Source of the DNA: Flavobacteriales bacterium
Lineage (GTDB): Bacteria; Bacteroidota; Bacteroidia; Flavobacteriales_F; PHOS-HE28
Assembly: GCA_041391785.1 (NCBI GenBank)
Contig: JAWKNI010000011.1
Span: forward strand, 1,330 to 65,329
DNA length: 64,000 nucleotides
Direction: 5' to 3'
Below the pieces are notes generated by a model. It worked only from the letters and a program-made list of their open reading frames with translations. It ran no database searches and was not told the DNA's origin. The position numbers and the translations under genes are program-made. Below, piece after piece: positions 30,506 through 53,306 of this stretch. Each line of letters begins with the position of its first letter. Position 1 is the first letter of the stretch.

Positions 30506-30521
30506 TAATGCCGTGGCAGGT

Positions 30522-31010
30522 TCAGGTCGGCAGTGAAGCCACCGCTACGAACGTCGCTCCATCGGTAGCGGCCTGTTGCATGGCAAGGGTCACTTGGGCG
30601 GTTTCCTTGGCCTTCGCCTCGACCGCCCCGTCGCCTCCAGCGGCTTGGTCCACTTGCTTCTGGAACTCTTGCATGATCGGCGCCATCACCACGGGCGTCA
30701 CCGGTCCCCCCGGGCTCATCTCACCGATCAACACGGTCGGGCACCCCACCACGATGGTTCCACCGTGCGCGCACATATCACCCATGCGTGCCGCCGGCTT
30801 GCCACCGATCAGCACACCCGTGGAACCCAGCACAATGGTATCTGGTGGTCCTACACAGGTACACATATCCCCCATCACGGCAGCGGGCATGCCGCCGATC
30901 AGCACGGTGGGCACGCCGGGGCCGGTCACCGGGCCGCCCACATGGGGCTTGGGACCATCGAACATGGGGCACACATGCATGTCGCCGAGACGGGCTGCGG
31001 GTTTGGACAT
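30522..31010 (-). CDS. PAAR-domain spike-tip protein with a roughly 50-aa Ala/Gln-rich C-terminal tail.
   Basis: 'MSKPAARLGDMHVCPM', repeated 'GxPxxxxGDMCxxGG' PAAR motifs. Confidence 0.85.
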   Translation of the reverse strand: MSKPAARLGDMHVCPMFDGPKPHVGGPVTGPGVPTVLIGGMPAAVMGDMCTCVGPPDTIVLGSTGVLIGGKPAARMGDMCAHGGTIVVGCPTVLIGEMSPGGPVTPVVMAPIMQEFQKQVDQAAGGDGAVEAKAKETAQVTLAMQQAATDGATFVAVASLPT

Positions 31011-33103: not shown

Positions 33104-33730
33104 TCAGTAGCCGAAATCCCAGCCCTTGGAGGGTGGCCGTTGCTCCCGTATGGGCTCCGGTTCCTGCACGATCGCGGTTTGGGTGGCCTCCTCTGGGATT
33201 TGTTCAGCGCGCAGCTTGGGCACACCGGTGGTGCCGGTAGCGAGTCCTTCGAGGCTGCCCTCCAGTTCGGCATACAGCAACTCGTTGTCCGATAGGGCGT
33301 ACTCCACCAACAGCCCATTCTCGTCCTCGGCCACGAATGCCGTGATCGGGCCGAAGAACTCCCGGAGCTGGTCCTTGTCGCAGGTGGGCAGGAACACGCG
33401 CAGGACACGGGGATCATAGTAGCGGAAGTAAAGCTCCTTGCCCTCCTCGGTCTGGATGATAAGGAAACGCCGCAGGTGTTTATACAGTCGCACGGGTTCC
33501 ACTTCGCTCCTGAACAGGATACCCCAACTGTTCCCTTTGCCCTGCCGCACGGCCCACCGGGCGAAATCGCTCCCGGGCTCGAAGGCGAACAACCAGGGTG
33601 CCACAGCGGCCAGGAATTTCTCACTGTCGCCCTCGTACAAGCACGTGTGGTCCGGGTTCAGGTCGCGGGCCTCCTGGATGGCGCCGTTCATGCGCGCCGC
33701 ATCGAGCAGGATGTAGTTGGCCTTCTTCAT
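33104..33730 (-). CDS. Second DUF4123-family T6SS adaptor paralog.
   Basis: 'ILLDAARMNGAIQEARDLNPDHTCLYEGDSEKFLAAVAPWLF'. Confidence 0.7.
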   Translation of the reverse strand: MKKANYILLDAARMNGAIQEARDLNPDHTCLYEGDSEKFLAAVAPWLFAFEPGSDFARWAVRQGKGNSWGILFRSEVEPVRLYKHLRRFLIIQTEEGKELYFRYYDPRVLRVFLPTCDKDQLREFFGPITAFVAEDENGLLVEYALSDNELLYAELEGSLEGLATGTTGVPKLRAEQIPEEATQTAIVQEPEPIREQRPPSKGWDFGY

Positions 33731-34143: not shown

Positions 34144-34701
34144 ATGAAGCCGATCAATGCTGCCCAGCGCCGGGGCCAGTTCCTTCGTTTTGTCCTACTC
34201 TTTCTGCTGGCGATGACACCGGTGGTGGTGTTCATGTACCTCCTTGGACGGAACGACAGCAAGGCATATGAAGCGCTCAAGAACGAGCGGAACGAACTTC
34301 ATCAAAAGGCCAAAGTACATATGGGCCATGCTGAATTGGTCGGGAAGGTTGCTCGAGCGAGCCGCTTGTTCCAACAGAGCGTGTTTGAGAAGGAGCCGGA
34401 CTTTCTGGGGTTCACTACAAAAGTAGACGGCGTGTTTCTCAATGCGATCAGGGACTTGGAAGAGGCATCAGATTCTCTTAAGGAGAAGGGAGGAGGGGCG
34501 AGCAGTGATAAAGAGCTTGTTGCGATCGCACAGGATTATGCTGCGACATCCAAGAAACTTCTGGAAGTGTACGTGGGCGGATTCGCTGAGATCGGTAGAC
34601 TTCGAAAAGATTATGCACAATGTGATAAAAGCCTTACCGAAAAAACGGTCGAGGTGACAGCGCTTACCACTAGTTTAGAGAATTGTAAGCGTTCCAGGTA
34701 A
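34144..34701 (+). CDS. Single-pass membrane protein with an N-terminal TM and a coiled coil. Candidate Bacteroidota-specific T6SS membrane-complex subunit (TssO/TssP-like?).
   Basis: TM 'FLRFVLLFLLAMTPVVVFMYLL'. It is the first gene of a plus-strand cluster inside the T6SS locus. The assignment is inference only. Confidence 0.4.
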   Translation: MKPINAAQRRGQFLRFVLLFLLAMTPVVVFMYLLGRNDSKAYEALKNERNELHQKAKVHMGHAELVGKVARASRLFQQSVFEKEPDFLGFTTKVDGVFLNAIRDLEEASDSLKEKGGGASSDKELVAIAQDYAATSKKLLEVYVGGFAEIGRLRKDYAQCDKSLTEKTVEVTALTTSLENCKRSR

Positions 34702-34731: not shown

Positions 34732-35949
34732 ATGAAGGGACCTATCATTGCCTTTTTCGTGGTATTGGTCGTGCTTCTCACCGGTCTGCTCCTTTGGATG
34801 GACGACTCGATCATTGGAGCAATCCATGTGAAGGCTGGTAGTGATTCTGTTCCGAACAGTTCCTTGGTGATTGGGCAAGAGTATTATTTGCAGCCGGGGG
34901 ATGAGGTGGACGTGAGTGACTCCGAAGGTTTGCTTTGGCTTGTTCGGTCGGGCAACAATGATGAATTGGGCGATGTATTTGGACAAGAAATGTCCGTCCC
35001 GGTCTACAACTTTGGGGATACCGGCCGGTACTACATTGAATGCTCCCGCAACGCAAAGGTCATAGCGGTGGATTCCGTCTACGTGCGGCAGGGTGATCGG
35101 TTCGCGAGCCTGGGAGCCTGGTCTTCCTCGCCGGCCGATACGGCGGGTGCGTCCATTTATTTGACGAACAATTCGCAGAACGTCGCGGAGTGGAGATGGC
35201 GTGTGCATCGCCAAGGGACCCTTGTTGCCGAAGAAGGCGGTCAGAGCTGGAACTGGACCCCGATCGACACGGGGAGCCACATGGTGCGTTTGGACGTGCA
35301 GATGCGGTCGGGTGCCACCCATGCCGACTCCATGCTCGTGGCCATTGCGCCACCACCGCCCAAGTCGGCGGTGGCACCGAAGCCCAAGCCAACGCCAACA
35401 CCACCTGCACCCAGGCCCAAACCTGCACCCAAGCCCAAACCCACACCCAAGCCGAAGGTAGATCTCGCACCGCCACCCCCACTTGCTGGTGCATGCTTTG
35501 GAGCGAACCGGGCCCTATCCAGCACGAGCAAGGCCGATATGCCCGACCCGAAACGCGCCGATGTGCGCTGGGAGAAGGGAACAACGGAGTTCATCCTGGA
35601 TGTACATACCGATTGCAAGCTGAAGGACTTTCCACACTTCGCCAATTCCGAAGTTGCGGGCAACAAGGTGGCTGTCACCGTTGAGTGCATCAGCGAGGGC
35701 TGTACCGGAGAGAGCAGGTACACACGTTATTTCACCCCGGCGTTCGACAGCCAGAAGTGGGCCTCAAGGAGTGTGAACCTGCCCCTGCTCCTGGCAGGCA
35801 AGCGCTACCGTGTACGTGTGCAGCCCCAGGGGGACACCGACTATCTCGGCTACTTCGGCATCACATCGCAAGTGGTGAACACACCCTGCGCCACCATCAC
35901 CTTCCAACAGAACACCAGTTGCGTGTTCGATCTGGGTTTCCAGCACTAA
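34732..35949 (+). CDS. Single-pass membrane protein with a periplasmic domain and a Pro/Lys-rich linker ('PKPKPTPTPPAPRPKPAPKPKPTPKPK'). Candidate TssO/TssP-like subunit.
   Basis: TM 'IIAFFVVLVVLLTGLLLWM'; the linker is visible in the DNA as a 'cccaagcc' periodicity. Confidence 0.4.
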   Translation: MKGPIIAFFVVLVVLLTGLLLWMDDSIIGAIHVKAGSDSVPNSSLVIGQEYYLQPGDEVDVSDSEGLLWLVRSGNNDELGDVFGQEMSVPVYNFGDTGRYYIECSRNAKVIAVDSVYVRQGDRFASLGAWSSSPADTAGASIYLTNNSQNVAEWRWRVHRQGTLVAEEGGQSWNWTPIDTGSHMVRLDVQMRSGATHADSMLVAIAPPPPKSAVAPKPKPTPTPPAPRPKPAPKPKPTPKPKVDLAPPPPLAGACFGANRALSSTSKADMPDPKRADVRWEKGTTEFILDVHTDCKLKDFPHFANSEVAGNKVAVTVECISEGCTGESRYTRYFTPAFDSQKWASRSVNLPLLLAGKRYRVRVQPQGDTDYLGYFGITSQVVNTPCATITFQQNTSCVFDLGFQH

Positions 35950-35960
35950 CACCGTTGGCC

Positions 35961-37916
35961 ATGAACCGTCCATTGATCCTTTCCGCACTCGCGCCGACCG
36001 TTCAGTGTTACTCCGGCCTGCCCCGCATGGTGATGGGGTTGGTGCTGTGCATAACTGCGGCGGGTATACGGGGGCAGGAAATCACGATCACCGGCGTGGA
36101 GCCAGACCCGGTTTGCGCAGGGGGGGGCTTGGCGGTGGCGTTCGAGTTGAATGATCCGTTCAATGGGGGCAACGAGTTCACCGTTTGGCTCAGCGATGCA
36201 AGCGGTGACTTTGGCAGTGAACAGCAGATCGGGTCGCTTGCAGGTAATGTGTCCGAGACGATCGATGCGGTTGTTCCTCTCGGTGTAATGGCCGGATCAG
36301 GATTCCGGGTCAGGGTGAAAAGCACGGATCCGGAGGTCATCTCGGATGGGTCGGGTCCCTTTGAGGTCATTGCCTTATTAGTTTTCCCCGGTAGCTATGG
36401 TCCGTTCTGCAGCAATGGACCTGCGATCACCCTGGGTGGCACACCGTCGGGTGGTGTGTGGACGGGTATAGGTGTGAGCGGAAATGGTCCGTACACCTTC
36501 AACCCTTCGGTGGGCACCCAGACGCTCACCTATACCGCGACCAGCGGTAGCTGCAGCGACAGTGCGCAGACAACCATAACAGTCAACACCGCCCCTGCGC
36601 AACCGGATCCGGGGACATACGGCCCGCTTTGCAGCAATGATGACCCCATCGATCTTGCAGGTGATCCAGAAGGCGGAACCTGGACCGGTATAGGAGTCAC
36701 CGGCAACCAGTTCAACCCGAGTGTGGGGACACAAGCGCTCACCTATTCGATCACGAACGCGAGCAACTGTACCAGTAGCGCATCAACCACGGTGACGGTG
36801 ACCAATGCATCAGATGCGTCCATCACCTACAACGGATCTCCTTTCTGTGCATCGATCGGTTCAGCCGCGGTCACACAAAGTGGTTCGGATGGAGGGTCGT
36901 ATACCGCTTCGCCGTTTGGTCTTATTATTAATGTCAACACCGGTGAATTGGACCCCGAAGCCAGTACTCCAGGTACATACACGGTCACGTATGAGGTGCC
37001 TGCGAACGGAGTGTGTCCGATTTTCACTACCTCCACTACCGTCACCATCGTGTCCGTTCCGGAGCTTCCAATAGTTGCCGATCTGGGTGCCGATACGTTG
37101 TGCCACGGCCAGGTCACCTCTCTTTTTCTGGGGAACGACTATCCAGCGGGAACATCCTATTCCTGGTCCACCAGTGGTCCTGCCGAAATACTCAGCGGTG
37201 CCGACGAACCTATTTGTACGCTGGAATGGACGCATGCACCACCGTCCACCGGTCCAACTGGAAGTGGGGTTGCAGGGAGCTATACGGTCGCGGTGAATGT
37301 CGGTGGGTGTGCGAATCAGGTGTCAGGAACGATCACTGTGCTGGATTACTATGCCTCCTGTCCCAAAGGCATCGTTTTCTTCGAGCCGTACGGACTGGCC
37401 GTGATCGATCCGGTGGCGAACCATTTTCAGTGGGGCGCCATGGATGCCACAGGCGCGACTTTCACACCGATCGTGGGCGAGGTGGACCAAATCATGTTCC
37501 GGCCCGCGCTCGCATCCTTGGCAGGCGGTCTCCCGGTGGCTCCTCCTTATGTGGTCCGCAGTTCCATCTACGCCGATAAGTGTTTCTCGTACACGGCCCG
37601 GTGGGTGGATCAACCGGGGCTTGATCGGGAATGTTTGGTACCCACCTCAGGCATGACCACGGAGCCGGGCCATACGATCTACCCCAACCCGGGGGACGGC
37701 AAGTCGCTCACGGTGGAGGCTACGGGACCTCCGCTGGAGGAACCCATATGGTTCGAATTGTACGATATGCAAGGCCAGCAGGTGCATGCCGAACAAGTGT
37801 TGGTGCGGCCCGTCGCCCGGCTCGCTGCGGATCTTTCCGGTCTTGGACGGGGCATGTACGTGGTGCGCCTGCATAGCAGTGGCATGGAAGAGAACTTGAA
37901 ACTGATACTCGACTGA
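35961..37916 (+). CDS. T9SS-sorted surface protein with a signal peptide, at least 5 Ig-like repeats ('GP(L/F)CSN..PI.L.G.P.GG.WTG.GV.GN.FNPSVGTQ.LTY') and a type-A C-terminal domain ('TIYPNPGDGKSLTVEA...GMYVVRLHSSGMEENLKLILD').
   Basis: Repeats and C-terminal domain read directly. The start at ATG 35961 ('MNRPLILSALAP') was chosen over the upstream ORF extension. Confidence 0.7.
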   Translation: MNRPLILSALAPTVQCYSGLPRMVMGLVLCITAAGIRGQEITITGVEPDPVCAGGGLAVAFELNDPFNGGNEFTVWLSDASGDFGSEQQIGSLAGNVSETIDAVVPLGVMAGSGFRVRVKSTDPEVISDGSGPFEVIALLVFPGSYGPFCSNGPAITLGGTPSGGVWTGIGVSGNGPYTFNPSVGTQTLTYTATSGSCSDSAQTTITVNTAPAQPDPGTYGPLCSNDDPIDLAGDPEGGTWTGIGVTGNQFNPSVGTQALTYSITNASNCTSSASTTVTVTNASDASITYNGSPFCASIGSAAVTQSGSDGGSYTASPFGLIINVNTGELDPEASTPGTYTVTYEVPANGVCPIFTTSTTVTIVSVPELPIVADLGADTLCHGQVTSLFLGNDYPAGTSYSWSTSGPAEILSGADEPICTLEWTHAPPSTGPTGSGVAGSYTVAVNVGGCANQVSGTITVLDYYASCPKGIVFFEPYGLAVIDPVANHFQWGAMDATGATFTPIVGEVDQIMFRPALASLAGGLPVAPPYVVRSSIYADKCFSYTARWVDQPGLDRECLVPTSGMTTEPGHTIYPNPGDGKSLTVEATGPPLEEPIWFELYDMQGQQVHAEQVLVRPVARLAADLSGLGRGMYVVRLHSSGMEENLKLILD

Positions 37917-37920
37917 AGCC

Positions 37921-39318
37921 ATGCGCAACCATAGCCTACTCCATACGCTCGCGGCCGTGTTCGTACTGGGCATTACCCAGGCAGTGATGGCCAGCACGCC
38001 GTCGGCCACCCCGCTGGGAGCCGATTCGGTAAAGGACAAGGCCGTTGCCCTATTGGAACGTAACCTGGCATCGCTACGTGAGCATCGCACCAGTGGGGGG
38101 CAATACGCCGCCACCTTCGCTGAAGGCGCCCGGGTCTATTGCGATGTATGTGTACCACCGGCCCCCATGCCCTTTGAGCAGTATTATTTCCAAGTGACGG
38201 GCACCTTCCCGAACGGACTGGACCTCATGTATACGATCCATCATGGGCGGATCGAAATGGAACGGGTGGATGTGGAATACCATGTTACTATCCCATTCAC
38301 AAAGGATGTCCCCGCAATGGGTGCAGGAGGTCCTATTCCGGGCAAGCGCCAGCGATCCCATTTGAAAGCCCTCGTGGTCTATAATTTCACGAACGGCTAC
38401 CTCAGGATCAAGCAAATAGAACTGGACCAGGCACCGGGTTCCAACCTTTGGATGTTGGATGTTTCGCCCATGTTGGCGGTCGGCAAACCGGAGTTGGGTG
38501 CGCTGGCCGATCTGGCACCGAGTTGGAACGGGAACATGTTCCAAGTGGGGCTGATGCGCTACATGTACCCGGGCAAGGGCACCAACCGGGGCAACATGTG
38601 GCTCAAGGCCGGCTTGCGTGCCGGGCTGCGACAAGTACGGTTGCAGGCCGATGGTGTGGCGTACGAGACCACCGGCATCGCTCTACGGCCCACGAGCTCG
38701 GGCTTGCCAGCCGGTTCGGCGGTGCAGCATCACCTGGACCTTTCACAGCGCGTGTCCGACATCAACGAAAAGGTGACCAGTATGACCTTGGAAGTCCCTG
38801 TTGGATTGAGCAAGCGTTGGGCCATGTCGCGCAAGGCCGACCTGAGCCTTGAACTGGAACTCGGGATCGGCATGGAGCTCACCCGTAGCGTCAATGGCGA
38901 TTACACCATGGACCAGCTTGGAATGCATACGTTCACCTGGGCTGATGGGGTGGATCCGGTGACCAGCTCCGGAGCTGACCTGACCTATGACCAACGCCAT
39001 CAAGCCGTGACCGCTGCATCGGGTACGGAGTACAGCTTCTTTCAGGACGACCGCATGGTGCTGGACGATCTGGAGAGCAAAGCCAGACCCTACTTTTTCT
39101 GGGGCATCAACCCATCCGTATTCGTCCGGGGACTGAATGACCAGGTCAAGTACCAGTTCGGTCTGCGCGTGGCCATGGTGGGGACCAACCGCAATAGCGC
39201 CGTGGTGGACGGAACATACTTCGCCGACCAGGATGATCATGCGCGTCCGGCCCTGACCACCTTGGTGGATGGGCGCTTTCAGCCCTTTGTCGGTGTCTTG
39301 TTCGGGATCAAACTTTGA
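37921..39318 (+). CDS. Outer-membrane-like protein with a signal peptide; paralog of the 31742-33094 product.
   Basis: 'MRNHSLLHTLAAVFVLGITQAVMAS' and the C-terminus 'GVLFGIKL'. Confidence 0.5.
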   Translation: MRNHSLLHTLAAVFVLGITQAVMASTPSATPLGADSVKDKAVALLERNLASLREHRTSGGQYAATFAEGARVYCDVCVPPAPMPFEQYYFQVTGTFPNGLDLMYTIHHGRIEMERVDVEYHVTIPFTKDVPAMGAGGPIPGKRQRSHLKALVVYNFTNGYLRIKQIELDQAPGSNLWMLDVSPMLAVGKPELGALADLAPSWNGNMFQVGLMRYMYPGKGTNRGNMWLKAGLRAGLRQVRLQADGVAYETTGIALRPTSSGLPAGSAVQHHLDLSQRVSDINEKVTSMTLEVPVGLSKRWAMSRKADLSLELELGIGMELTRSVNGDYTMDQLGMHTFTWADGVDPVTSSGADLTYDQRHQAVTAASGTEYSFFQDDRMVLDDLESKARPYFFWGINPSVFVRGLNDQVKYQFGLRVAMVGTNRNSAVVDGTYFADQDDHARPALTTLVDGRFQPFVGVLFGIKL

Positions 39319-39323
39319 ACCTC

Positions 39324-41852
39324 ATGCGCATCCGTTTGCTTGTCGCGATCCCCGCGCTGCTGTGGCTGGTCGGCACGACCATGGCACAAAAGCCTGAAAA
39401 TGTGCTCTTCAAGCCGGTCAACTGGTTCCAGGTCAGGTATGATCATGAGAACGACCGGTTCTATAACGACCAGGGAGAACAGCTCAATGAGGAGTATTGG
39501 ACCTTCGCGTCGGGCAAGGGCGACAAGAGCCAGCGGTGGACCGTTTTCACCGATCGTGCGGGCGTGCTTCTGCGCAGTGAGCCACAAGCCGAAGCCGCAC
39601 CCACCTCATCCGCCGCGTTGCCTTTCGCGCAGGTGTTGTACGTGTTCAAGGAGGAGAAGGGATGGCTGTTGGTCGGGCGTGAATCGAACAGATCTGAGGG
39701 CTGGTGCGACAAGCGGCACCTCGTATTGTGGGACAAGCCGCTCGCCGAACATCGCACACGTATCGAGTTGAAGGCCTTTCTCGTCAACACGCTGACGGGC
39801 ATTGGAACAGAGCGCGGATCCGTACAGGGAGATCTCAAGCAGAAGTACGAGGTGTTCGATGGCCCCGGGTCGCGGGCCGAACGAAGGGAAACGAACTACC
39901 TCTACGATGTCTTCTACATCTACAAATACGATAAGGAGGGTGAGCGATGGCTTATTGGGCCGAATGAGATCTATAGCCAAAGTCCCTTGCTTGGCTGGGT
40001 GAATGCGCGCAAAGTGAAAGTGTGGGCGACCCGTCTGTGCCTGGAACCCAACTGGGAGGAGGCAGCGAAGGCCGAGCGCCGGGAAAAGAACGTCCGGGCG
40101 AGGCTGCTTCCATGGAACTCCACCCAGGTACAACAGCGCGCGTATCTACAGTCCGGTAATGGTGAGGGGCTGGTGGATGGGGATGAGAGCGAGCCGGCGT
40201 TCGATCGCTCGGGTCTGACCGGTGATCGGATGGACGCACGGCTGTTCCGTTATCCTGTGCTCGGCGCGCAAATGGAGGGCGATGCGAATTGCAGGTTCTT
40301 CACCGGGGTATCGGGTGTGATGAACGTCGGTGGCAGCGGAACGCTTGAGGGCTTCCGGAATGGGGACTATCTGAGAGTGCGCCGGTATTACGAGGCGTTG
40401 CGGGAGCAGAAGGATGTGCTCTGTGTCGTGTTCGTGCTTGAAGGAAGTGCTGATATGCGCACGCACATCGGCACCGTGAAGGAGACCATTGCCGCGCTGC
40501 AGCAGGAGTGCAAGAAGACAGGCATGACCGCCCGGTATGGGGTGGTCCAGTATTTCAATGAGTACGCTTCCGACAAAAAGGAGCCCGAATCGGCCTACAT
40601 GGAACAGCTCCCATTGACCAACGATGCCATGCAGGTGTTGGAATGGCTGGACAAGCGCATTTGCGAGGATAGGGGGGACAAAAGCGAAGCGCGCGCGGCC
40701 TACCTGGCATTGGCCCGTGGCATGGCCATGATGGAGAAGGGGCGGACCAATGTGCTCGTCCACCTCTGCAGCAGGCCCGACAATGGACGTGATGACCCAA
40801 CCTTCGGAGGTAAGTCCCAAACGGATCCCACGGACCTGGTGGCCGGCTTGGAAATGGGCAGGGCAACGCACTACCTGGGCTATGTCCTCAGCGGTGGTAC
40901 CACCGGGCCAACGGAACGGAAAGAAGCGTTCAACGGCATGGCCGAGGATGTGATGCCGGAATTGTCGACCGCGATCAGCAATCAGCTCAAGGGTATCGTC
41001 GAATTGGCCCGTGATGCGAAAGGGCGGGCATTGGCGCCCACGGTCGCCAGGACCAAAAAAGATGGTTCGGAAACGGCACGCATGGACCAATTCCATTTCA
41101 TGATGAAAGCCACCATGCTGGCCGATGGTACGAGCGATCTGCCACGTATGATCGTCGCGGATGTGGCCAATTCCGTGGAGAGCAGCAGGCAGGCCCTTGC
41201 AGCACTGGAAGGGATCGTGGACGATCGTTCGATGATCAAGGACCATGCACCCAGTTTCAGCTACTTCTATGGGCAGTTGACCGCGCAGGATGGGGTCGAT
41301 CGGGAAACACTGGACTTCCTTGCTCGGGAGAAGGTGCACGTGTTCACCAATGCGGCCACCTGGCATCGGGTCACGGGCATGCAACACCCGCTCTTCCGGT
41401 ATGTCCTGTTCTACGATGACCGCAGTTTGAACGCTGAGATCATTGCGCTCGATGAGTTGATCCGGGCCATGGAAACGATCAACATCGACGAATCCCGTGA
41501 ACAGTTGAGGACCCTTTGGCGGAAACGTGCGCAGGATGTCATCGGGTCCAAATACAGTGATAAGGTTCCTTTGGATGAGGTAAGGGCCAAGATGATGGGT
41601 GTTCATGACCTGAACATGGTCAAGCCCTTTGAAGATGCTTCCTTGCTCAAGGGGCTCACGTTGAACGATCTGGATAACAAGACCAAGTTCAACCAGACCG
41701 TGTTGGATGGTTACAAGAAGGCCGCGATCGCGAACAAAGAGGCCTTGAACGCGATAAAGACCCAGGGCCAGTACTACCAGGCTCCGGGCCATGAAGAACG
41801 GAAGGATGAGCGCCGTTACTACTGGATTCCCATTGAGTATTTGTTCAATTGA
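39324..41852 (+). CDS. Large secreted protein (~842 aa) with a vWA-like domain carrying a degenerate MIDAS ('VLCVVFVLEGSADM', 'NVLVHLCSRPDNG'). It is the first member of a tandem paralog pair.
   Basis: Signal peptide 'MRIRLLVAIPALLWLVGTTMAQ'. It aligns by eye along its whole length with the next gene (shared 'IELKAFL', 'LLGWVN.(R/T)KVKVWATRLCLEPN', 'LFRYPVLGA', C-terminal 'YWIPIEYLFN'). Confidence 0.6.
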   Translation: MRIRLLVAIPALLWLVGTTMAQKPENVLFKPVNWFQVRYDHENDRFYNDQGEQLNEEYWTFASGKGDKSQRWTVFTDRAGVLLRSEPQAEAAPTSSAALPFAQVLYVFKEEKGWLLVGRESNRSEGWCDKRHLVLWDKPLAEHRTRIELKAFLVNTLTGIGTERGSVQGDLKQKYEVFDGPGSRAERRETNYLYDVFYIYKYDKEGERWLIGPNEIYSQSPLLGWVNARKVKVWATRLCLEPNWEEAAKAERREKNVRARLLPWNSTQVQQRAYLQSGNGEGLVDGDESEPAFDRSGLTGDRMDARLFRYPVLGAQMEGDANCRFFTGVSGVMNVGGSGTLEGFRNGDYLRVRRYYEALREQKDVLCVVFVLEGSADMRTHIGTVKETIAALQQECKKTGMTARYGVVQYFNEYASDKKEPESAYMEQLPLTNDAMQVLEWLDKRICEDRGDKSEARAAYLALARGMAMMEKGRTNVLVHLCSRPDNGRDDPTFGGKSQTDPTDLVAGLEMGRATHYLGYVLSGGTTGPTERKEAFNGMAEDVMPELSTAISNQLKGIVELARDAKGRALAPTVARTKKDGSETARMDQFHFMMKATMLADGTSDLPRMIVADVANSVESSRQALAALEGIVDDRSMIKDHAPSFSYFYGQLTAQDGVDRETLDFLAREKVHVFTNAATWHRVTGMQHPLFRYVLFYDDRSLNAEIIALDELIRAMETINIDESREQLRTLWRKRAQDVIGSKYSDKVPLDEVRAKMMGVHDLNMVKPFEDASLLKGLTLNDLDNKTKFNQTVLDGYKKAAIANKEALNAIKTQGQYYQAPGHEERKDERRYYWIPIEYLFN

Positions 41853-41863
41853 CCATCGTGTTC

Positions 41864-44437
41864 ATGCTAACGTTTAGTAGTTCAACTAAGGTAAGATCGG
41901 CGGTTCTTTCCGTCCGAACCATCCGGATAGGTGTGGTCTCCTTGGCCTTGTTCGTTGGGACTATCGTTCGAGGGCAAAACTTCCAGAGGTTACCCGAGAC
42001 GTGGACGAGCGTCCGGTATGATCACAATACCCATGAGTATTACTTTGACAAGAACCCTAAGAAGGACTATGCTGCCGAAAAAAGTTCGACCAAGGTCACC
42101 CAATCGGCTTGGCTGGTCTTTTCGGATCGCGAAGGAACCGAGCTTTTCAACAAGCACCCTGGAAAGGGTGGTGAGCCCATAGGGCGACGGTTACGCTTCG
42201 GTGAGTTGCTGTATGTGTATGCGGAAGCGGGTCGGTGGATGCAGGTCGGCAAGAATGATTCCGGGCCTGAGGGCTGGTGTAAAAAGGACGACCTGGTCTT
42301 GTGGTCCAGGCCACTGAACGACCAACTGACCGGTATCGAGTTGAAGGCCTTTCTGATCAACCGGATCACTGCCGACGGAAAGTTGGACAAGCGGGAGTAC
42401 GATGGTGACTTGAAACAGCGCTACGAAGTATTCGATGGGCCTGATCCGGGCGCCAAGGTGATCGGTAATGAGTTGCTGTACGATGTGTTGTACATCTACA
42501 AGCACAGTGATGATGGGAAAGGCGGTGAGCGCTGGCTCGTGAGCGGCTATCATGGCTTGGGGCCGGCCACGCCGTTATTGGGCTGGGTGAACAAGACCAA
42601 GGTGAAAGTGTGGGCTACACGCCTCTGTTTGGAACCCAATTTTGACGATGCTGCCAGGTTGGAACGCCGCGATCGCGGGATACGGGCCAAATTGTACCCG
42701 CTATTGCAGCAGGACCAAACAGAGGAATACCTCAAAAGCGGCAAGGGTGAGAAGGGTTTGGTGGATGGAGCAGGTAGGGACCCTGCCTTCCATGATGACC
42801 AGTTGTCCTCGACCAGGATGGACGGTAAACTCTTTCGCTATCCAGTACTTGGCGCAACCATGATCGGCACGGATAACTGCCAGTTCTACACCGGTGTCTC
42901 GGCGCGCATGAACGTGGCCGCGACGGGATCCCTGGAAGGCTTCAACGAGGAGGTTTATCTACAAGCTCGAAAGGAATATGAAGCGCTGAAGGAGAGGAAG
43001 GATAAAGTGGGGGTCGTGTTCGTGATCGAAGGAAGCGCGGGTATGCAAGGAGTTCCAGATATTGTGAAACGGGCCATTCAGAGCATTCGTGGGCAGCATG
43101 GTGGTGAGAAGGTCATGCGGTTCGGTGCGGTGTATTACAGGAACGAATTCGCTCACCTACCTGCGGATGAGGATCCGGAGACAGGATACCTTGAAGTACT
43201 ACCGTTGAGTGATGATGTTGCGAAAGTGTTGGGCTGGATCGGTAAACGCAGTGCGCAGAATTGGGGTGATCACAATGACCAACGGGCGGCACACCTGGCC
43301 TTGCAACGCGGATTGGCCTTGTTGCAGCGCTATGAGACCAATGTCATTGTCCATATAGCGGCACGGCCCGACAATACCGAGGACCCCACATTCGGTGGCA
43401 AGACCTTGGTGGACCTTGTCGAGTTGGGCCGTGGCCTGGGATTGGGGTATTCAGCTCATTACCTGGGGTATGTGCTTCCGGCTGTGGAGCATGACACGGT
43501 CAATTTTGTAAGAGCAGCTGCTTATGAGGGGCAGCGCCAGGTCATGTCGGAATTGGCGGTGGCGCTGAACAATCAGTTGAAAGGGTTGGCCCAGTTCGGG
43601 TTGGATGTGACAGGCAAGGGAAGGGCTATTGCGCCGGAGGAGATCGAGGTCACCGGCTCGGATGGGTGGAAGGTGTCGAGCCTGGATGGGTTCTACTTCG
43701 TCATGAAGGCACATTTGCTACCGACCACGGCCTCTGCCTTGGATACCAGGATCGCCAACGACGTGTCCGAGTGCCTGGCCATGAGCCAACGTACGCTCGA
43801 TGGGATCGGTGCCGTGGTGGAAGATGAGTCGTTCGTTAGTGACAGGACCACGGACATCACCTTCTCAGTAAGTGAACTACTTGGCCTCAGCCCTGAAGCG
43901 AGGAGCACGTATGACCACCTTGCCAGACACAAGGTGCACATTTACCAAGACGCGCGCACGTACTATCGCGTCGCAGATCTTCAGCAACCGATCTTCAGAT
44001 ATGTCCTTTTTTACCGGGACCTGGACTTCGAAAGAGAGATCGCGGAACTACAGCGATTGGTCACATCCCTGGCAGGCCACAATGCGGACGATTCCGTGGA
44101 GAAGCTCGCGCAACTGTGGCAGGCAAGGGCAGAGTCGACCCTTGGCACCAATTACGACAAGCAGAAGACCACCCTGGCCGACATTCAGGAGAAGCTGATG
44201 GGCATCCATAAGATATCGATGGTCAAGCCCTTCCGTGATGCATCGATCCTGGCGGACATTCAGTTCAAGGATCTGATGGATCGTAAGATCGATAGAAAGA
44301 AGCTCGGTGATTATCAGAAGGCTGCTGAGGCCAACCTCGAGAAATTGAAAGCCATAAAGAGCCAGGGTGTGAGCTACACCATTCCGGGCAAGGATAGCAA
44401 GTTCTACTGGGTGCCTGTGGAATATCTGTTCAACTGA
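41864..44437 (+). CDS. Large secreted vWA-like protein (~857 aa), second member of the tandem paralog pair.
   Basis: See the previous feature; 'VGVVFVIEGSAGMQG', 'NVIVHIAARPDNT', C-terminal 'FYWVPVEYLFN'. Confidence 0.6.
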   Translation: MLTFSSSTKVRSAVLSVRTIRIGVVSLALFVGTIVRGQNFQRLPETWTSVRYDHNTHEYYFDKNPKKDYAAEKSSTKVTQSAWLVFSDREGTELFNKHPGKGGEPIGRRLRFGELLYVYAEAGRWMQVGKNDSGPEGWCKKDDLVLWSRPLNDQLTGIELKAFLINRITADGKLDKREYDGDLKQRYEVFDGPDPGAKVIGNELLYDVLYIYKHSDDGKGGERWLVSGYHGLGPATPLLGWVNKTKVKVWATRLCLEPNFDDAARLERRDRGIRAKLYPLLQQDQTEEYLKSGKGEKGLVDGAGRDPAFHDDQLSSTRMDGKLFRYPVLGATMIGTDNCQFYTGVSARMNVAATGSLEGFNEEVYLQARKEYEALKERKDKVGVVFVIEGSAGMQGVPDIVKRAIQSIRGQHGGEKVMRFGAVYYRNEFAHLPADEDPETGYLEVLPLSDDVAKVLGWIGKRSAQNWGDHNDQRAAHLALQRGLALLQRYETNVIVHIAARPDNTEDPTFGGKTLVDLVELGRGLGLGYSAHYLGYVLPAVEHDTVNFVRAAAYEGQRQVMSELAVALNNQLKGLAQFGLDVTGKGRAIAPEEIEVTGSDGWKVSSLDGFYFVMKAHLLPTTASALDTRIANDVSECLAMSQRTLDGIGAVVEDESFVSDRTTDITFSVSELLGLSPEARSTYDHLARHKVHIYQDARTYYRVADLQQPIFRYVLFYRDLDFEREIAELQRLVTSLAGHNADDSVEKLAQLWQARAESTLGTNYDKQKTTLADIQEKLMGIHKISMVKPFRDASILADIQFKDLMDRKIDRKKLGDYQKAAEANLEKLKAIKSQGVSYTIPGKDSKFYWVPVEYLFN

Positions 44438-44442
44438 GCAAG

Positions 44443-45189
44443 ATGGTACCTGCATTCCATCTGAAGCACCTGGCCTTGGGCTACGACGGAACGGAGGTGC
44501 TCAGGGTGCCGGAACTGGTCATACCAAGCGGGGGCATGGTCTTCGTGATCGGGCGCAGTGGAACAGGCAAGAGCACCTTGTTGGAGTCCATCGGGCTCAT
44601 GTCCGACACCTTCCTTCGGCGGCCGGGTGTAAAGCCCGAGTTGCACATCGAAGGCAGCTCTTTCGATCCGGTGGCACTTTGGGACCATGACAGGGAGCAG
44701 CTTGCCCGGATCCGGCGCGAGCGGTTCAGCTTCATCTTCCAGAGCACCAACTTGATGCCCAACTTCACCATCGGTGAGAACATTCGGATGGCTGCTTTTT
44801 CGCACGGTATGGATGAGCAGGCCACGCAGGATGGCATAGCCGCGCTGTTGGAGGCACTGGGGCTCCCGCATGGCACCCTTGAGAAACCGGCGCATGCCGT
44901 TTCCGGCGGGCAGCGGCAGCGGGTGGCCTTCATTCGTGCCTTGATCAAGGACTTCTCCGTACTGCTGGCCGACGAGCCCACGGGCAATTTGGATGCGGCG
45001 AATGCGAACACGCTGTTCCAGGTGCTCAAGAACGAGGTGACCCGCCGGAAGGCCACGGCCGTGGTGGTCACCCATCATCTGGAACTTGCCGAGCGGTTCG
45101 GAGACCTTATTCTGGACCTACGCATCCCGGACAATGGTGGAGCCCAAAGTGCCGAGGTACACATACACCGGAGCGGTGTGTCCGCTTAG
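44443..45189 (+). CDS. ABC transporter ATP-binding protein of the LolD/MacB/FtsE type.
   Basis: 'GRSGTGKSTL', 'VSGGQRQRVAFIRAL', 'LLADEPTGNLD'. Confidence 0.85.
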   Translation: MVPAFHLKHLALGYDGTEVLRVPELVIPSGGMVFVIGRSGTGKSTLLESIGLMSDTFLRRPGVKPELHIEGSSFDPVALWDHDREQLARIRRERFSFIFQSTNLMPNFTIGENIRMAAFSHGMDEQATQDGIAALLEALGLPHGTLEKPAHAVSGGQRQRVAFIRALIKDFSVLLADEPTGNLDAANANTLFQVLKNEVTRRKATAVVVTHHLELAERFGDLILDLRIPDNGGAQSAEVHIHRSGVSA

Positions 45190-45195
45190 CCTGCC

Positions 45196-46773
45196 ATGCA
45201 ACAAGCAGCAGGAATGATCGACAAGGTGCAACGCAGGCTTTTCCTTACCCGGGAGTATGAGGCCATCCGGGGTAAAGGGGGGTATGTGTTCTGGATGCTT
45301 TACGCCATCATGTTGGTGGCGCTGGCCGCTGTGGCGATCGGCCGCACCGGTCTGGAGCATCTGCAAGGTCGCATGGACGACCCATTCACCACATGGGTCG
45401 ATATACCCGCATCCAACACGACCGTGGGCGACCATTACGACGAGCTGCGGGCGTACCTCAACGACTGTGCCCGTACGGGCCGCTTCCATGCACGAAGCAC
45501 TTCCGGTAGTTACGCCTTCAGTGTGCAGGGATTGGTGGTCGGGGAGGAGCCTTATTGGGACTACCTGCGATTGCAGAGCTTTGGTTTCCATGCGGATAGT
45601 GCCCTGCTCAGGGCTGTTCTGGGCGAAGGCAATCTGATCACCGAGCTGGTGGACACGGATGCATTGAGCAGTCCTACCGCATACAAGGATGGTATCATCA
45701 TCACGGCCAATGCATTGAAGGAGTTGGGTTACGACTTACAAGACCTGCGGGAAAAGAAGATCATCCTGCGCAATTCGATGTACCATGTGCCGGTGCGTGT
45801 CCTTGCCGTGGTACAAGCCGTTCCGGGCCGACGCGATGTCTTCATGGAGCACCATCTCCTGAAAGGGATCCAGGAGGCCGAGGAACGGAAATTCCTTTCC
45901 ACAACGGTCGACACGACCCATGTGCTGTTGGGCTTTGCGAACCAAGGGGAGGCACGTGCTGCTGCAAGCACGATCGGGCAGTTGTTCGGTGTAGGGCCCC
46001 AGGCGGTGGATGTGGTACCCGATACGTCGACCCTGACGCATGCATGGCGGGTCCGCTGTGTGGGCTGTGGTCTGCCATTGTTGACGGAGCGGAGCATAGC
46101 TCAGGGTCAGTTGGCGATCCATCGCGAACTGAAAGGCTTCATGCCGGTGGTACTCCATGAGGTGAACTACCGGACATCGGATCCGTCCGACAGCCACGGG
46201 GAGACCTTGGATTCATGGTTCGACCATCTGACCATCACGTTCTCGGACCTGGATTCCATTGCTTCCTTCCAGCGTGACCTGGTGGACAAGTTCAAAGTGG
46301 AGTTGGACCTCGACCGGGTGCGCTCCATGGAGAATTTCGGGTTCATCGCGGGACTGTCCAGGTTCCTGGTGGCGGCCTTGGTCCTTTTCGCCGTGCTTTC
46401 CATCCTGTTGTTCCTTTACAATCTGCTCCAGAACCACCTGGAGCGGATCAAGATGAACCTTGGCACCTTCATGGCATTCGGCCTCCCGGAGCATTTTCTC
46501 TACCGGGGCTACCTCCGCATCATCGGTAAGCTGCTCCTTCGCGCGATGCTGGCGGCAATGGCCACGCTCGCCATCCTTCAGGCTCTGGTATGGTTGGTAC
46601 AGCGTATGGGCGTGCAATTGCCGGACCTGATCGCCACGCTCTCGGTGATCGGAAATCCCTGGCTCTATGTGACCCTGCTAGCCCTGTCGCTTGCCGGTTT
46701 CATCATCTTCCGCTGGCAGTTGCGTCGCTTTCTGGCCAGCACACCCGGAGACCTGATCTATGCCCGACGATGA
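45196..46773 (+). CDS. FtsX/MacB-type ABC permease with an N-terminal TM, a large periplasmic domain and a C-terminal 3-TM bundle.
   Basis: Topology read from hydrophobic segments; the stop overlaps the next gene's ATG (ATGA). Confidence 0.7.
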   Translation: MQQAAGMIDKVQRRLFLTREYEAIRGKGGYVFWMLYAIMLVALAAVAIGRTGLEHLQGRMDDPFTTWVDIPASNTTVGDHYDELRAYLNDCARTGRFHARSTSGSYAFSVQGLVVGEEPYWDYLRLQSFGFHADSALLRAVLGEGNLITELVDTDALSSPTAYKDGIIITANALKELGYDLQDLREKKIILRNSMYHVPVRVLAVVQAVPGRRDVFMEHHLLKGIQEAEERKFLSTTVDTTHVLLGFANQGEARAAASTIGQLFGVGPQAVDVVPDTSTLTHAWRVRCVGCGLPLLTERSIAQGQLAIHRELKGFMPVVLHEVNYRTSDPSDSHGETLDSWFDHLTITFSDLDSIASFQRDLVDKFKVELDLDRVRSMENFGFIAGLSRFLVAALVLFAVLSILLFLYNLLQNHLERIKMNLGTFMAFGLPEHFLYRGYLRIIGKLLLRAMLAAMATLAILQALVWLVQRMGVQLPDLIATLSVIGNPWLYVTLLALSLAGFIIFRWQLRRFLASTPGDLIYARR

Positions 46774-47273
46774 AAGACACACGTAAGCCATCCTTGCTAC
46801 TTGCATCGACCTGCATCCTGCTGTGCGGAACACTCCTATGGTCGACAAGCTGCAACAGCTCGGACCAGCGCACCAGCGACCCAACGGTCACCAACGAGAC
46901 CGCCACGAAGGTCCTGGAGCAACTTGACCAGGAAGCTGCCGAAGCGCGCCAGGCGGCCGAGAAGGCGGGGGTACCGGAAGAGACCATCGAAGCGATGGAA
47001 CAGTCGCAGGAGGACAGGCGCAGCCGGTTGGAGCAACAGAACAGCGACTCACCCTATAAGGGGCTTTCAGGGGCTGAGATCGAGGCCATGATGGAAGAAC
47101 TTCTGGAAAAGTACCTGGCCGATCCATCCACCGGTACCTATGAAACGGTCATGAACACGTTCCGGGAGCCCATGGTCAAGCAGTACTACGACAACAACGG
47201 CCCGGAGGTGAAGGCCCGACGGAAGGCGATCGTGGATAGGATGAAGGCGGCTAAGGCTGGAGGCTCCGAGTAG
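46772..47273 (+). CDS. Lipoprotein of 167 aa ('LLLASTCILLCGTLLWSTSC' lipobox-like) with an acidic helical body.
   Basis: Signal plus Cys; translationally coupled to the permease. Confidence 0.55.
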
Positions 47274-49847: not shown

Positions 49848-50273
49848 TCAGAAACAGGCTTCCCAGATTTCAGTGGGGTTGATCATCGCACCATCTTTGG
49901 TGATTTCGATATGCACATGATTAGTTATCCCGTTGTATCTTGCAGAAAGGTCTTGGGCATATCCGATTAGGCTGCCTGCCTGCACTTCTCCGGATAGGAT
50001 GCCTTCTACGTAGAACATCTTCACGATATATCCCTCCCATTCACCGGTGCCTACAATTAGAAGGCCACGGAACCTTGGGTCATCTTTATACGGGATGGCC
50101 TCGCGTGTAATAATCCCGTTGATGGGTGAATAGACACGGCCACCTGCATTGACCTTTATATCGAGACCATGATGTTTCCTATTACCCCGCGATGCACCGA
50201 AGTGACCATCTCCATGGCGGTCACGCACACGGCTGACTTGAGGTAGAACTATGCTGGCGCCTAACGGTTTCAT
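49848..50273 (-). CDS. M23/LytM-family metallopeptidase domain protein of 141 aa, catalytic domain only, with no signal peptide. Candidate Hcp-delivered peptidoglycan endopeptidase effector.
   Basis: 'HHGLD' (HxxxD) and 'HVHIE' (HxH) zinc-ligand motifs read directly. The gene lies 94 bp downstream of hcp. Confidence 0.65.
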   Translation of the reverse strand: MKPLGASIVLPQVSRVRDRHGDGHFGASRGNRKHHGLDIKVNAGGRVYSPINGIITREAIPYKDDPRFRGLLIVGTGEWEGYIVKMFYVEGILSGEVQAGSLIGYAQDLSARYNGITNHVHIEITKDGAMINPTEIWEACF

Positions 50274-50367: not shown

Positions 50368-50757
50368 TTACATCGGCCACTCGTTCTGCAGCTCTTCGCT
50401 GCCGAGGGTCAGCTTCTGGGCCGAGAGGGTGAACGAGGTGGTCATGGGGTTGCCGCCCACGGAGTCGAAGTTCTCGCTGAGCTGTACCACGTAGGCAGTG
50501 GTGAACTTCAACTCCTTCATCTTGGCGTCCTCGTCACGCTTCTTGAATACGATGCTGCCGTCCACGCTCTTGAACTGGGCGATCATCAGATCCCACAGGG
50601 AGGTGTCGTCGGTGCTTTCGATCTCGAAGCTGATGGTACCACCTTTCACTTCGCTGCTGGGGCGGCCGGTGGGGTCGATGTCACGGTTCAAGGCGTAGCT
50701 GCAGTGCAGCAGGCGGTAGGTCTTGCCGTTCATCGTGAGGTCTGCGCGGAATGCCAT
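50368..50757 (-). CDS. hcp: Hcp (TssD) T6SS inner-tube protein, Bacteroidota type, 129 aa.
   Basis: 'MAFRADLTMNGKTYRLLHCSYALNRDIDPTGRPSSEVKGGTISFEIEST' from ATG 50757. A 430-bp promoter region lies upstream. Confidence 0.85.
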   Translation of the reverse strand: MAFRADLTMNGKTYRLLHCSYALNRDIDPTGRPSSEVKGGTISFEIESTDDTSLWDLMIAQFKSVDGSIVFKKRDEDAKMKELKFTTAYVVQLSENFDSVGGNPMTTSFTLSAQKLTLGSEELQNEWPM

Positions 50758-53284: not shown

Positions 53285-53306
53285 ATCCCCACCAGACCCA
53301 TCCGGG

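Follow-up and report, generated by a model that had tools for sequence, protein, structure and literature searches.

Tandem predicted copies of the T6SSiii subunit TssR in an uncultured Flavobacteriales lineage

TssR, an envelope-spanning part of the Bacteroidota type VI secretion "crossbow" (T6SSiii), is an already named and experimentally studied protein family. This large subunit contains a vWA domain and lies on the periplasmic or outer-membrane side of the TssNQOPR membrane complex, by which the T6SSiii is anchored in the cell envelope. A 2024 study found the Bacteroides fragilis protein to be essential both to killing and to Hcp secretion; it co-purifies with TssN, TssQ, TssO and TssP, and binds TssN, TssO and the TssP periplasmic domain (Bongiovanni et al., PMC10781749). 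Its functional analogue in proteobacterial T6SSi is TssJ, found on the outer-membrane side of the membrane complex; this small lipoprotein adopts a transthyretin-like fold and has no homology to TssR (general knowledge and review PMC13584744).

A tandem pair of TssR genes

The window analyzed here, a stretch of 64,000 nucleotides from a Flavobacteriales metagenome-assembled genome (MAG), carries two neighboring genes on its forward strand whose products are identified by sequence comparison as diverged copies of TssR. The open reading frame tssR-A (39324-41852 including the stop codon, with an alternative start at 39315) codes a protein of 842 amino acids that stands in NCBI, residue for residue, as the hypothetical MAG protein R2815_11550 and matches database protein P0001 at 100%. 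tssR-B (41864-44437) codes 857 amino acids when counted from the ATG at 41864. A TTG at 41849 is an alternative start that overlaps the tssR-A stop codon, and the two genes are thus separated by 11 nt or overlap by 4 nt. The true start of tssR-B most likely lies within 41849-41864, while its public record (P0005, 743 amino acids) begins 119 codons downstream. The only novelty of the pair is that two tssR copies adjoin in one uncultured Flavobacteriales lineage. The account that best explains the data as a whole, and that is probably correct, is that both genes code TssR of a T6SSiii, that they derive from an old tandem duplication, and that copy A is indispensable and copy B accessory.

Pfam describes TssR by an N-terminal barrel (PF17643), TssR_M (PF20780), TssR_VWA (PF20782) and TssR_C (PF20781). 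The four domains are found in order in TssR-A, where TssR_VWA alone passes the cut-off (30 bits against 25.7) and the matches to the barrel, TssR_M and TssR_C are weak. The barrel (25.5 bits) and TssR_VWA (22.6 bits) of TssR-B lie slightly under the 25.7 cut-off. All close homologs display the Pfam TssR domains in canonical order with scores near the gathering threshold, and an NCBIfam scan of TssR-A and TssR-B returned no matching family. A profile of the window's clade retrieved 1375 proteins by hmmsearch, whose full-length matches (780-880 amino acids, E-values of 1e-50 to 1e-70) grade into proteins with strong TssR scores, such as P0065 and P0120. Canonical TssR was represented for hhalign by set A3, composed of 24 proteins that each match the Pfam-defined TssR_VWA, N-terminal barrel and TssR_C. 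The clade profile aligns to it with a probability of 100% and an E-value of 6e-76 over 719 columns (64-844 against 48-809), at ~20% sequence identity between members of the two groups.

The initial annotation described the two products as full-length paralogs of 40-50% identity, and this holds: BLASTP gives 363 identities over 850 residues (43%; 61% positives; E = 0) in an alignment that is colinear from the signal peptide through the final residue, the similarity being full-length and not confined to low-complexity patches. The term giant does not fit proteins of ~850 amino acids, which are only large. Their description as orphan secreted vWA proteins also has to be replaced, as they are TssR, which had been missed, and lie inside a complete T6SS locus.

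TssR of B. fragilis GA3 and the two proteins are alike in size (~800-860 amino acids), in domain order, in the YYW(I/V)P motif and in their T6SSiii position after tssO/tssP-type genes, a likeness drawn through the Pfam-defined set A3 and not through the B. fragilis sequence itself. The two systems differ in several traits. B. fragilis TssR is reported to have an SPII lipoprotein signal while both copies have an SPI-type signal, and the vWA pentad D-G-T-x-S of the canonical TssR clade contrasts with E-x-S-x-D/G in the pair. B. fragilis tssR is followed by tssD, whereas here two tandem paralogs are followed by an ABC transporter pair.

The T6SSiii locus

The core genes are located on the reverse strand downstream of the pair and were assigned by Pfam and NCBIfam. 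They code Hcp/TssD (50371-50757), a TssK-like protein (51189-52481), TssN (52367-53284), TssG (53307-54257), TssF (54254-56044), TssE (56050-56496), VgrG (56501-58282), TssC (58319-59677), TssB (59715-60164) and ClpV (60182-62653). The T6SSiii core of the window is complete (TssB, TssC, TssD, TssE, TssF, TssG, ClpV, VgrG, TssK, TssN and PAAR), and the tssK-tssN-tssG order at 51189-54257 fits the T6SSiii pattern of PMC10781749. The core genes, this gene order and a TssO-like gene upstream of the pair together provide the T6SSiii setting of a TssR.

The genes that surround the pair are all on the forward strand. The TssO-like protein (34144-34701) has a single transmembrane segment and a weak match to TssO (PF17561). 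It is followed by a 405-amino-acid protein with a single transmembrane segment and a proline-rich linker (34732-35949), a possible TssP analogue by its position; a clear match to TssP or TssQ was not obtained in the window. Related loci repeat the order of these two genes, and locus L001 shows a faint TssO match. Next come an Ig-like protein with a T9SS C-terminal domain (~35964-37916; Por_Secre_tail matches) and a signal-peptide protein of 465 amino acids and of no known family (37921-39318), whose gene ends 5 nt upstream of tssR-A. Both are kept upstream of tssR in L001, L002, L006 and L029. Directly downstream of tssR-B lie a LolD/MacB-like ABC ATPase (44443-45189) and, after it, a permease-like protein of 525 amino acids (45196-46773), a pair that comes after tssR in every related locus that reaches past tssR. 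The NCBIfam scan of the neighbors found no family for the 405-amino-acid, the 465-amino-acid or the permease-like protein.

These components are all encoded in one conserved operon. It is conceivable, if rather doubtful, that the clade builds a distinct T6SSiii membrane complex, with a TssR that is not a lipoprotein and that in some lineages forms an A/B heteromer, the exported 465-amino-acid protein, a surface Ig-like protein delivered by the T9SS and a TagT/TagS-like ABC pair. If so, the TssR duplication would alter the subunit composition or the symmetry of the complex on its outer side.

Domains, motifs and ends of the two proteins

The TssR-A vWA domain spans approximately residues 355-560 (40386-41003; Pfam TssR_VWA 355-480) and that of TssR-B, whose limits are approximate and come from the alignment with A, corresponds to 42974-43597. 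The vWA-like core noticed in the initial annotation is borne out by profile, fold search and structural model. The family profile A2 matches the vWA domains of collagen VI, Med25 and integrins in the PDB. An AlphaFold2 (AF2) model computed from 128 sequences reached a pLDDT of 92.6 and a pTM of 0.87; it replaced an earlier, poor model from 10 sequences (pLDDT 65, pTM 0.41), and pLDDT and secondary structure are the evidence taken from it. The top Foldseek matches are vWA proteins (E-values of 1e-7 to 1e-5) and include ITIH1, integrin beta I-like domains and pilus adhesins. Since the match is confined to the vWA part, TM-scores are low (0.14-0.17 of the query).

The MIDAS-equivalent pentads are E373-G-S-A-D377 in TssR-A (40440-40454) and E389-G-S-A-G393 in TssR-B (43028-43042). 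They were mapped onto DxSxS by profile alignment to the vWA domains of collagen VI (..FLIDGSnn..) and integrin alpha-L (LVFLFDGSMSLQ). As read from these alignments, neither copy has a complete MIDAS (D-x-S-x-S plus the later Thr and Asp), although the later Asp is retained in A as D486, within RPDN. The degenerate MIDAS proposed earlier, ExSxD in A and ExSxG in B, is thus correct, but it is a trait of the whole family, and the possibility that it is peculiar to the pair was rejected. By alignment, replacement of D by E and absence of the last Ser both recur across TssR: D-x-[ST]-x-[ST] is found in only 32 of 128 sampled family members, 24 of which carry N in place of the later Asp.

The vWA domain of TssR is most likely a module for protein-protein contacts and not a metal-dependent ligand binder. 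Such a structural or protein-binding role is plausible and agrees with the published contacts of TssR to TssP, TssN and TssO. The vWA domains of Med25, TFIIH p44 and Ku80, which serve protein-protein contacts, provide parallels: they share with TssR a non-canonical first MIDAS loop. Those of TFIIH p44 and Ku80 are among the fold matches, and Med25 (VVFVIEGTANL) has in this loop the E-G-T of the TssR family consensus. These three proteins are eukaryotic and nuclear, and their tie to TssR ends at the common fold; they illustrate only that a vWA domain can function with an incomplete MIDAS. The integrin beta I-like domain and ITIH1, the best Foldseek matches (E-values of 1e-7 to 1e-6), also have a vWA domain inserted in a larger host domain. 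They differ in having a functional MIDAS, joined in integrins by ADMIDAS and SyMBS, and in metal-mediated ligand binding.

The N-terminal SH3-like barrel and the second (M) domain of TssR-A, delimited by the Pfam TssR and TssR_M matches, are coded by 39513-40052. They include IELKAFL (residues 147-153; 39762-39782) and GWVNARKVKVWATRLCLEPN (39993-40052). The M-domain motifs of TssR-B, IELKAFL (residues 158-164) and GWVNKTKVKVWATRLCLEPN, lie within 42335-42640. The second motif, GWVN..KVKVWATRLCLEPN, occupies residues 224-243 of A and 240-259 of B. Among 128 family members K150, W225 and W234 are invariant, and E241, P242 and N243 are nearly so. The N-terminal motifs reported initially are therefore common to both copies and conserved in orthologs, with the reservation that GWVN.R. 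fits A only, B having GWVNKTK.

The two proteins finish with the closely related motifs YYWIPIEYLFN (TssR-A; 41817-41849) and FYWVPVEYLFN (TssR-B; 44402-44434). The shared YW(I/V)P(I/V)EYLFN end is real, and its YYW(I/V)P part is found family-wide, W834 being invariant in 128 members. The last residue, N in both copies, is not fixed in the family, where N, D, E, F, P and Y all occur. In TssR-A the motif is modelled as a strand (832-836) followed by a helix (837-841) at a pLDDT of ~95.

At the opposite end, both N-termini look by eye like signal-peptidase-I signals that end A/G-Q. The signal peptide of TssR-A (39324-39386) reads MRIRLLVAIPALLWLVGTTMA before Q, and its helix 5-19 has low pLDDT in the AF2 model. 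That of TssR-B (41864-41977), ending in RIGVVSLALFVGTIVRG before Q, has a long n-region, as does the L006 B ortholog. Residues 1-45 of A and of B contain no Cys, and the two proteins thus do not carry the SPII lipoprotein signal reported for B. fragilis TssR; their attachment to the outer membrane must then differ or be indirect. A crude lipobox regular expression flagged only 7 of 155 retrieved family proteins, so that an SPII signal probably does not characterize TssR in general. The signal peptides claimed for both proteins are thus apparently present; the accompanying term secreted is right in that the proteins appear exported, but should read as periplasm or outer-membrane side.

Signal peptides, a vWA fold whose best PDB matches include pilus adhesins and integrins, and a conserved extreme C-terminus could also describe free secreted or surface proteins with a structural or adhesive role and a C-terminal sorting motif. 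This is very improbable for proteins that are homologous to TssR over their full length and whose genes, in all related loci, lie inside a T6SSiii operon. A sorting signal of T9SS or outer membrane protein (OMP) type was rejected. Por_Secre_tail, the T9SS C-terminal domain of ~70-100 amino acids, gave no match in either copy while it does in the neighboring gene. The motif sits in a helical domain, as a confidently modelled fold element with a variable last residue, unlike the OMP beta-signal, a terminal aromatic residue that closes a beta-barrel. Furthermore, a VSVG tag at the C-terminus of B. fragilis TssR did not prevent its co-purification with the complex (PMC10781749), showing that a tagged protein assembles.

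Returning to the identification as TssR, homology to the B. fragilis protein suggests how the two copies would operate. Each is built of an N-terminal barrel, a second domain and a helical C-terminal domain that hosts the vWA domain and has the C-terminal strand as an integral part, and each would be exported through its signal-peptidase-I-type signal. The TssR copies would dock onto the inner-membrane-anchored TssO-like and TssP-like proteins and TssN. We infer that this docking would complete an envelope-spanning channel for firing of the Hcp/VgrG spike.

History and roles of the two copies

Sequence comparison traces the pair to one old tandem duplication within a small clade of uncultured Flavobacteriales, predating the window lineage. 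In a neighbor-joining (NJ) tree the A sequences (window, L001 and L006) and the B sequences (window and L006) each form a clade with 100% bootstrap. Support for the sister relation of A and B is only 62%, and the single-copy L005 is placed outside at 100%. Copy A is kept in the three lineages that have the duplication (3/3). Copy B is intact in the window, has one in-frame TAA in L006-L010/L015, whose loci are 99.97-100% identical and represent one population, and is reduced to a 124-amino-acid relic in L001. A metagenome scan with the clade alignment A1 yielded 13 loci, with no tandem pairs other than that of the L006-type population.

The preferred interpretation is that copy A is the indispensable TssR, retained in every lineage with the duplication, and that copy B would be an accessory paralog still under selection in the window genome. 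B appears dispensable because sister lineages truncated or lost it; where present, it probably co-assembles with A or replaces A at some positions of the complex.

Copy B might instead be functionally redundant, a duplicate that has simply not yet been inactivated and lacks a separate role, A alone building the complex. The near-deletion of B in L001, its in-frame stop in the L006-L010/L015 population and the fact that all other clade members manage with one TssR speak for this, and that two of the three lineages (2/3) have lost B is equally consistent with B having no distinct role. Redundancy is nevertheless unlikely in view of how B has diverged. Despite its 43% identity to A, it retains every invariant column of the 10-sequence clade alignment and of the 128-sequence family alignment, and its orthologs diverged no faster than those of A (54% and 55% identity, respectively). 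Divergence is uniform from domain to domain. At the 46 positions of clade-fixed A/B differences, outgroups carry the A state at 24 and the B state at 19, a near-symmetry that leaves no sign of relaxed constraint in either copy. A duplicate evolving neutrally would not be expected to survive intact over such divergence.

The conservation of both copies end to end, together with the presence at the locus of a PAAR gene and at least two DUF4123 adaptor modules, would also suit alternative subunits that serve two versions of the complex, used under different conditions, with different VgrG, PAAR or effector loads, or in a second T6SS elsewhere. There is little probability of this. The 64-kb window holds one T6SS core set, and a tblastn search of it gave no further tssR. 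Translational coupling within one operon argues against differential expression of the two genes, and TssR has no known contact to the spike or to effectors (PMC10781749). An indispensable A accompanied by an accessory B is the reading retained here.

The general understanding of T6SSiii is unchanged by these findings. For the organism, two "hypothetical proteins" of a Flavobacteriales MAG gain a specific and testable role. For the family, the pair illustrates that TssR can escape routine annotation through divergence, with Pfam scores near threshold and no NCBIfam model. tssR was not identified in 31% of T6SSiii loci (Bongiovanni et al., PMC10781749), and divergent TssR clades may account for some of them. 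The family-wide degenerate MIDAS and the YYW(I/V)P motif are useful to those who design TssR mutants. Finally, the A/B pair, which has decayed unequally among sister lineages, offers a small natural experiment on the dispensability of a second membrane-complex subunit.

Two tandem genes coding for divergent TssR proteins

The genes tssR-A (39315/39324-41852, plus strand) and tssR-B (41849-44437, plus strand) code for proteins of 842 and 857 amino acids counted from their ATG codons, at 41864 for tssR-B, whose alternative TTG start at 41849 overlaps the tssR-A stop codon. BLASTP aligns the products, TssR-A and TssR-B (A and B), colinearly, starting in the signal peptide and ending at the final residue (363/850 identities, 43%; 61% positives; E = 0), which bears out the initial annotation of the pair as full-length paralogs. 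All motifs named there are present in both proteins: IELKAFL (A 147-153; B 158-164), GWVN..KVKVWATRLCLEPN (A 224-243; B 240-259), a pentad at the position of the vWA motif DxSxS (E-G-S-A-D, A 373-377; E-G-S-A-G, B 389-393) and the last eleven residues (YYWIPIEYLFN in A; FYWVPVEYLFN in B). The tssR-A product is 100% identical to R2815_11550, annotated as hypothetical in the NCBI MAG 'Flavobacteriales bacterium'. The public TssR-B record (P0005, R2815_11555; 743 amino acids) begins at an internal Met, dropping the signal peptide and ~100 residues alignable to TssR-A and its orthologs (region 41849-42220); the true start most likely lies at 41849-41864. GC skew is markedly positive (+0.13 to +0.17) over positions 40001-44000, across the two tssR genes, while the rest of the window lies at ~0 to +0.06; this is probably a coding-composition effect of the two genes.

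In Pfam, A matches TssR_VWA with 30 bits (cut-off 25.7) and, with weaker scores and in the correct order, TssR_C, TssR_M and the TssR N-terminal barrel, while B matches the N-terminal barrel (25.5 bits) and TssR_VWA (22.6 bits). The eight closest homologs show the same pattern, and no NCBIfam model matches A or B. As the Pfam scores are at threshold, membership was examined by comparing profiles. Ten clade members were built into a profile and run against 1.84 billion representative proteins, with 1375 matches passing E <= 1e-3 and 349 of them E <= 1e-30; most extend end-to-end over proteins of 780-880 amino acids. Distant matches, like the database proteins P0065 and P0120, are strong for three or all four TssR domains (TssR_VWA 93-96 bits). 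A canonical set was made of 24 such distant proteins, every one matching TssR_VWA, the N-terminal barrel and TssR_C at E <= 1e-5; hhalign aligned the clade profile to it over 719 columns (64-844 versus 48-809; probability 100%, E 6e-76). Judged by these profile comparisons A and B are members of the TssR family, with clade members ~20% identical to canonical TssR in a 128-sequence family alignment.

The AlphaFold2 model of TssR-A derived from the 128 sequences has a mean pLDDT of 92.6 and a pTM of 0.87; a previous one derived from 10 sequences had been of poor quality. Foldseek against the PDB retrieved vWA-containing proteins only, namely ITIH1, integrin beta I-like domains, the pilus adhesins SpaC and PitA, TFIIH p44, Ku80 and CMG2. 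The vWA-like core initially proposed is thus upheld by a confident model and its structural matches. A family-profile search found no solved TssR structure in the PDB.

The T6SSiii locus around the tssR pair

The window carries a T6SSiii locus with its core genes on the minus strand: ClpV (60182-62653), TssB (59715-60164), TssC (58319-59677; 747 bits), VgrG (56501-58282), TssE (56050-56496), TssF (54254-56044), TssG (53307-54257), TssN (52367-53284; 90 bits), a TssK-like gene (51189-52481) and Hcp/TssD (50371-50757; 160 bits). This order agrees with the T6SSiii pattern of Bongiovanni et al., in which tssN lies between tssK and tssG and tssR is grouped with tssQ/O/P; tssR was not identifiable in 31% of the T6SSiii loci of that study (PMC10781749). 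B. fragilis TssR, which has three predicted domains with the vWA fold in the middle, is necessary for interbacterial killing and Hcp secretion, co-purifies with TssN, Q, O and P in a megadalton membrane complex, and has TssN, TssO and the periplasmic domain of TssP as binding partners (PMC10781749).

A PAAR gene and two DUF4123 adaptor genes (29906-31010 and 33104-33730) are also on the minus strand. The unannotated ORFs adjoining them are probably effector and immunity genes; the related locus L002 has PAAR-Gln_amidase and Imm35 at this position. An M23 peptidase domain protein of 141 amino acids without obvious signal peptide (49848-50273, minus strand) adjoins Hcp and may act as a T6SS effector that degrades peptidoglycan, or remodel the cell wall so that the machine can assemble. 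A gene for a LytTR-type response regulator (63020-63910, minus strand) directly adjoins clpV where the locus borders other DNA, and its product may control transcription of the T6SS.

The tssR genes belong to a plus-strand operon that starts with a TssO-like gene (34144-34701; weak Pfam match) and a gene at the position of tssP (34732-35949) coding for a single-TM protein of 405 amino acids. The latter features a long Pro/Lys/Thr-rich linker (PKPKPTPTPPAPRPKPAPKPKPTPKPK) and has no Pfam or NCBIfam match, although TssP is reportedly near-ubiquitous and well conserved in T6SSiii. An Ig-like protein with a T9SS CTD (about 35964-37916) and, directly 5' of tssR-A, an exported 465-amino-acid protein with a signal peptide and of no known family (37921-39318) follow; both genes are conserved in the related loci L001, L002, L006 and L029. 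The presence of a T9SS cargo gene within a T6SS operon is unusual.

The amino termini of A and B resemble signal-peptidase-I (SPI) signals, end in A/G followed by Gln, a residue that Bacteroidota SPI substrates typically have at +1, and have no Cys. They differ in this from B. fragilis TssR, which has an SPII lipoprotein signal (PMC10781749). The 465-amino-acid protein might be the outer-membrane anchor that a non-lipoprotein TssR lacks.

The operon continues 3' of tssR-B with genes for an ABC ATPase (LolD/MacB-like; 44443-45189) and a 525-amino-acid permease-like protein (45196-46773). Together with a small ORF of ~150 codons they form a trio found directly 3' of tssR in every clade locus reaching past tssR, down to 30% TssR identity (window 44443-47273; L001 12861-15695; L002 12563-15356; L005 5137-7913; L006 9872-12660; L029 10558-13435). 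The permease-like protein (~525 amino acids) gave no match in a Pfam search and, read by eye, has one amino-terminal and three carboxyl-terminal hydrophobic segments. The ABC pair recalls TagT/TagS of the Pseudomonas aeruginosa H1-T6SS, here in a T6SSiii setting. From gene order by itself, it is a speculative and rather improbable reading that the 465-amino-acid protein, the T9SS-CTD Ig protein, the non-lipoprotein TssR(s) and the TagT/TagS-like pair build a distinct membrane-complex architecture.

The MIDAS loop and the carboxyl terminus

In profile-to-PDB alignments the TssR consensus ..NivFViEGTesM.. aligns on ..diiFLiDGSnn.. of collagen VI and LVFLFDGSMSLQ of integrin alpha-L, so that E-x-S-x-D/G was rightly assigned to the D-x-S-x-S position. 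Among 128 family members, which are the matches closest to the query profile and make the fractions indicative only, the first position is E in 69 and D in 54, the third T in 81 and S in 31, and the fifth S in 47, G in 23 and D in 12. D-x-[ST]-x-[ST] is found in only 32/128, with Asn at the later MIDAS Asp position in 24 of these 32. Degeneracy of the MIDAS is spread over this sample and is ruled out as a peculiarity of the A/B pair. Med25 reads VVFVIEGTANL at the loop position, and its vWA domain functions in protein-protein contact with no known metal site. Given the E-G-T loop and metal-free contact role of Med25, the best reading by analogy is that the TssR vWA domain would serve in protein contact, which fits the published contact of B. 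fragilis TssR with TssP, although Glu is able to coordinate metals.

The carboxyl-terminal motif (Y/F)(Y/F)W(I/V)P, 8-10 residues before the end, occurs in essentially all retrieved family members, with its Trp (W834 in A) unchanged in all 128 aligned sequences. Its conservation, seen initially in the pair, is thus family-wide; a function as a sorting signal, raised there as a possibility, found no support. The final residue differs between family members (N, D, E, F, P, Y), Pfam matches the T9SS CTD in neither TssR copy, the motif is predicted to form a strand (832-836) and a helix (837-841) with pLDDT of about 95, and B. fragilis TssR with a carboxyl-terminal VSVG tag still joins the complex (PMC10781749). 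For these reasons we take it to be part of the core fold of TssR_C or of an interface in that domain, rather than a sorting signal. That A and B are free secreted vWA proteins bearing a sorting tag, as first annotated, is scarcely credible, being contradicted by the TssR family, the T6SSiii context and the predicted structure.

Duplication and fate of the two copies

Close relatives of the pair are rare: a word-indexed search gave 11 matches, one-genome-per-species GTDB four loci, all from uncultured Flavobacteriales MAGs, and metagenomes 13 loci. According to gene neighbourhoods and tblastn, tssR is single in L002-L005, L011-L014, L016-L018 and L029, and a tandem pair in the window and in L006-L010/L015. 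The latter six loci are 99.97-100% identical in DNA and therefore represent one metagenomic population sampled six times. Their B copy is colinear with window B (54% identity) and has a single in-frame TAA (L008 7001-7003), which breaks it into two ORFs, of 639 and 215 amino acids. In the sister lineage L001 the A copy is 69% identical to window A and just a 124-residue carboxyl-terminal relic of B remains (12483-12857), its motif decayed to CWAPVHHLIY.

A neighbour-joining tree groups the A copies of the window, L001 and L006 (100% bootstrap) and the B copies of the window and L006 (100%), joins A and B as sisters (62%) and leaves the single-copy L005 outside (100%). This topology indicates that the duplication predates the split of the three lineages. 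After that split B was lost in one lineage and interrupted in another, and it stayed intact in the window. Window B shows no sign of decay in its sequence, since it keeps all family-invariant residues, its identity to A is uniform across domains (38-55%), and, of 46 positions at which the two clades carry different fixed residues, A keeps the outgroup state at 24 and B at 19.

Loss of B in other lineages would suit a merely redundant second copy; its long and symmetric conservation makes this unlikely. Still less probable is that A and B take each other's place in different versions of the complex, considering their tight operonic coupling and the single core set visible. The reading that we favour, and hold to be probable, is that A and B are exported TssR subunits that would finish the T6SSiii membrane complex on its periplasmic or outer-membrane face. 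A would be the indispensable copy and B an accessory paralog, probably co-assembling with A or replacing it at some positions. The data above establish the family, the fold, the locus and the history of the duplication, from which the place of A and B in the complex, their partner contacts and their co-assembly are inferred.

TssR as a family, with its vWA domain and role, is already known, published in 2024 and modelled in Pfam. What is new is the recognition in uncultured Flavobacteriales of a very divergent TssR clade and of a lineage-restricted tandem duplication with differential decay. To judge from the sequences of this clade, a true TssR can lie very far from the canonical members.
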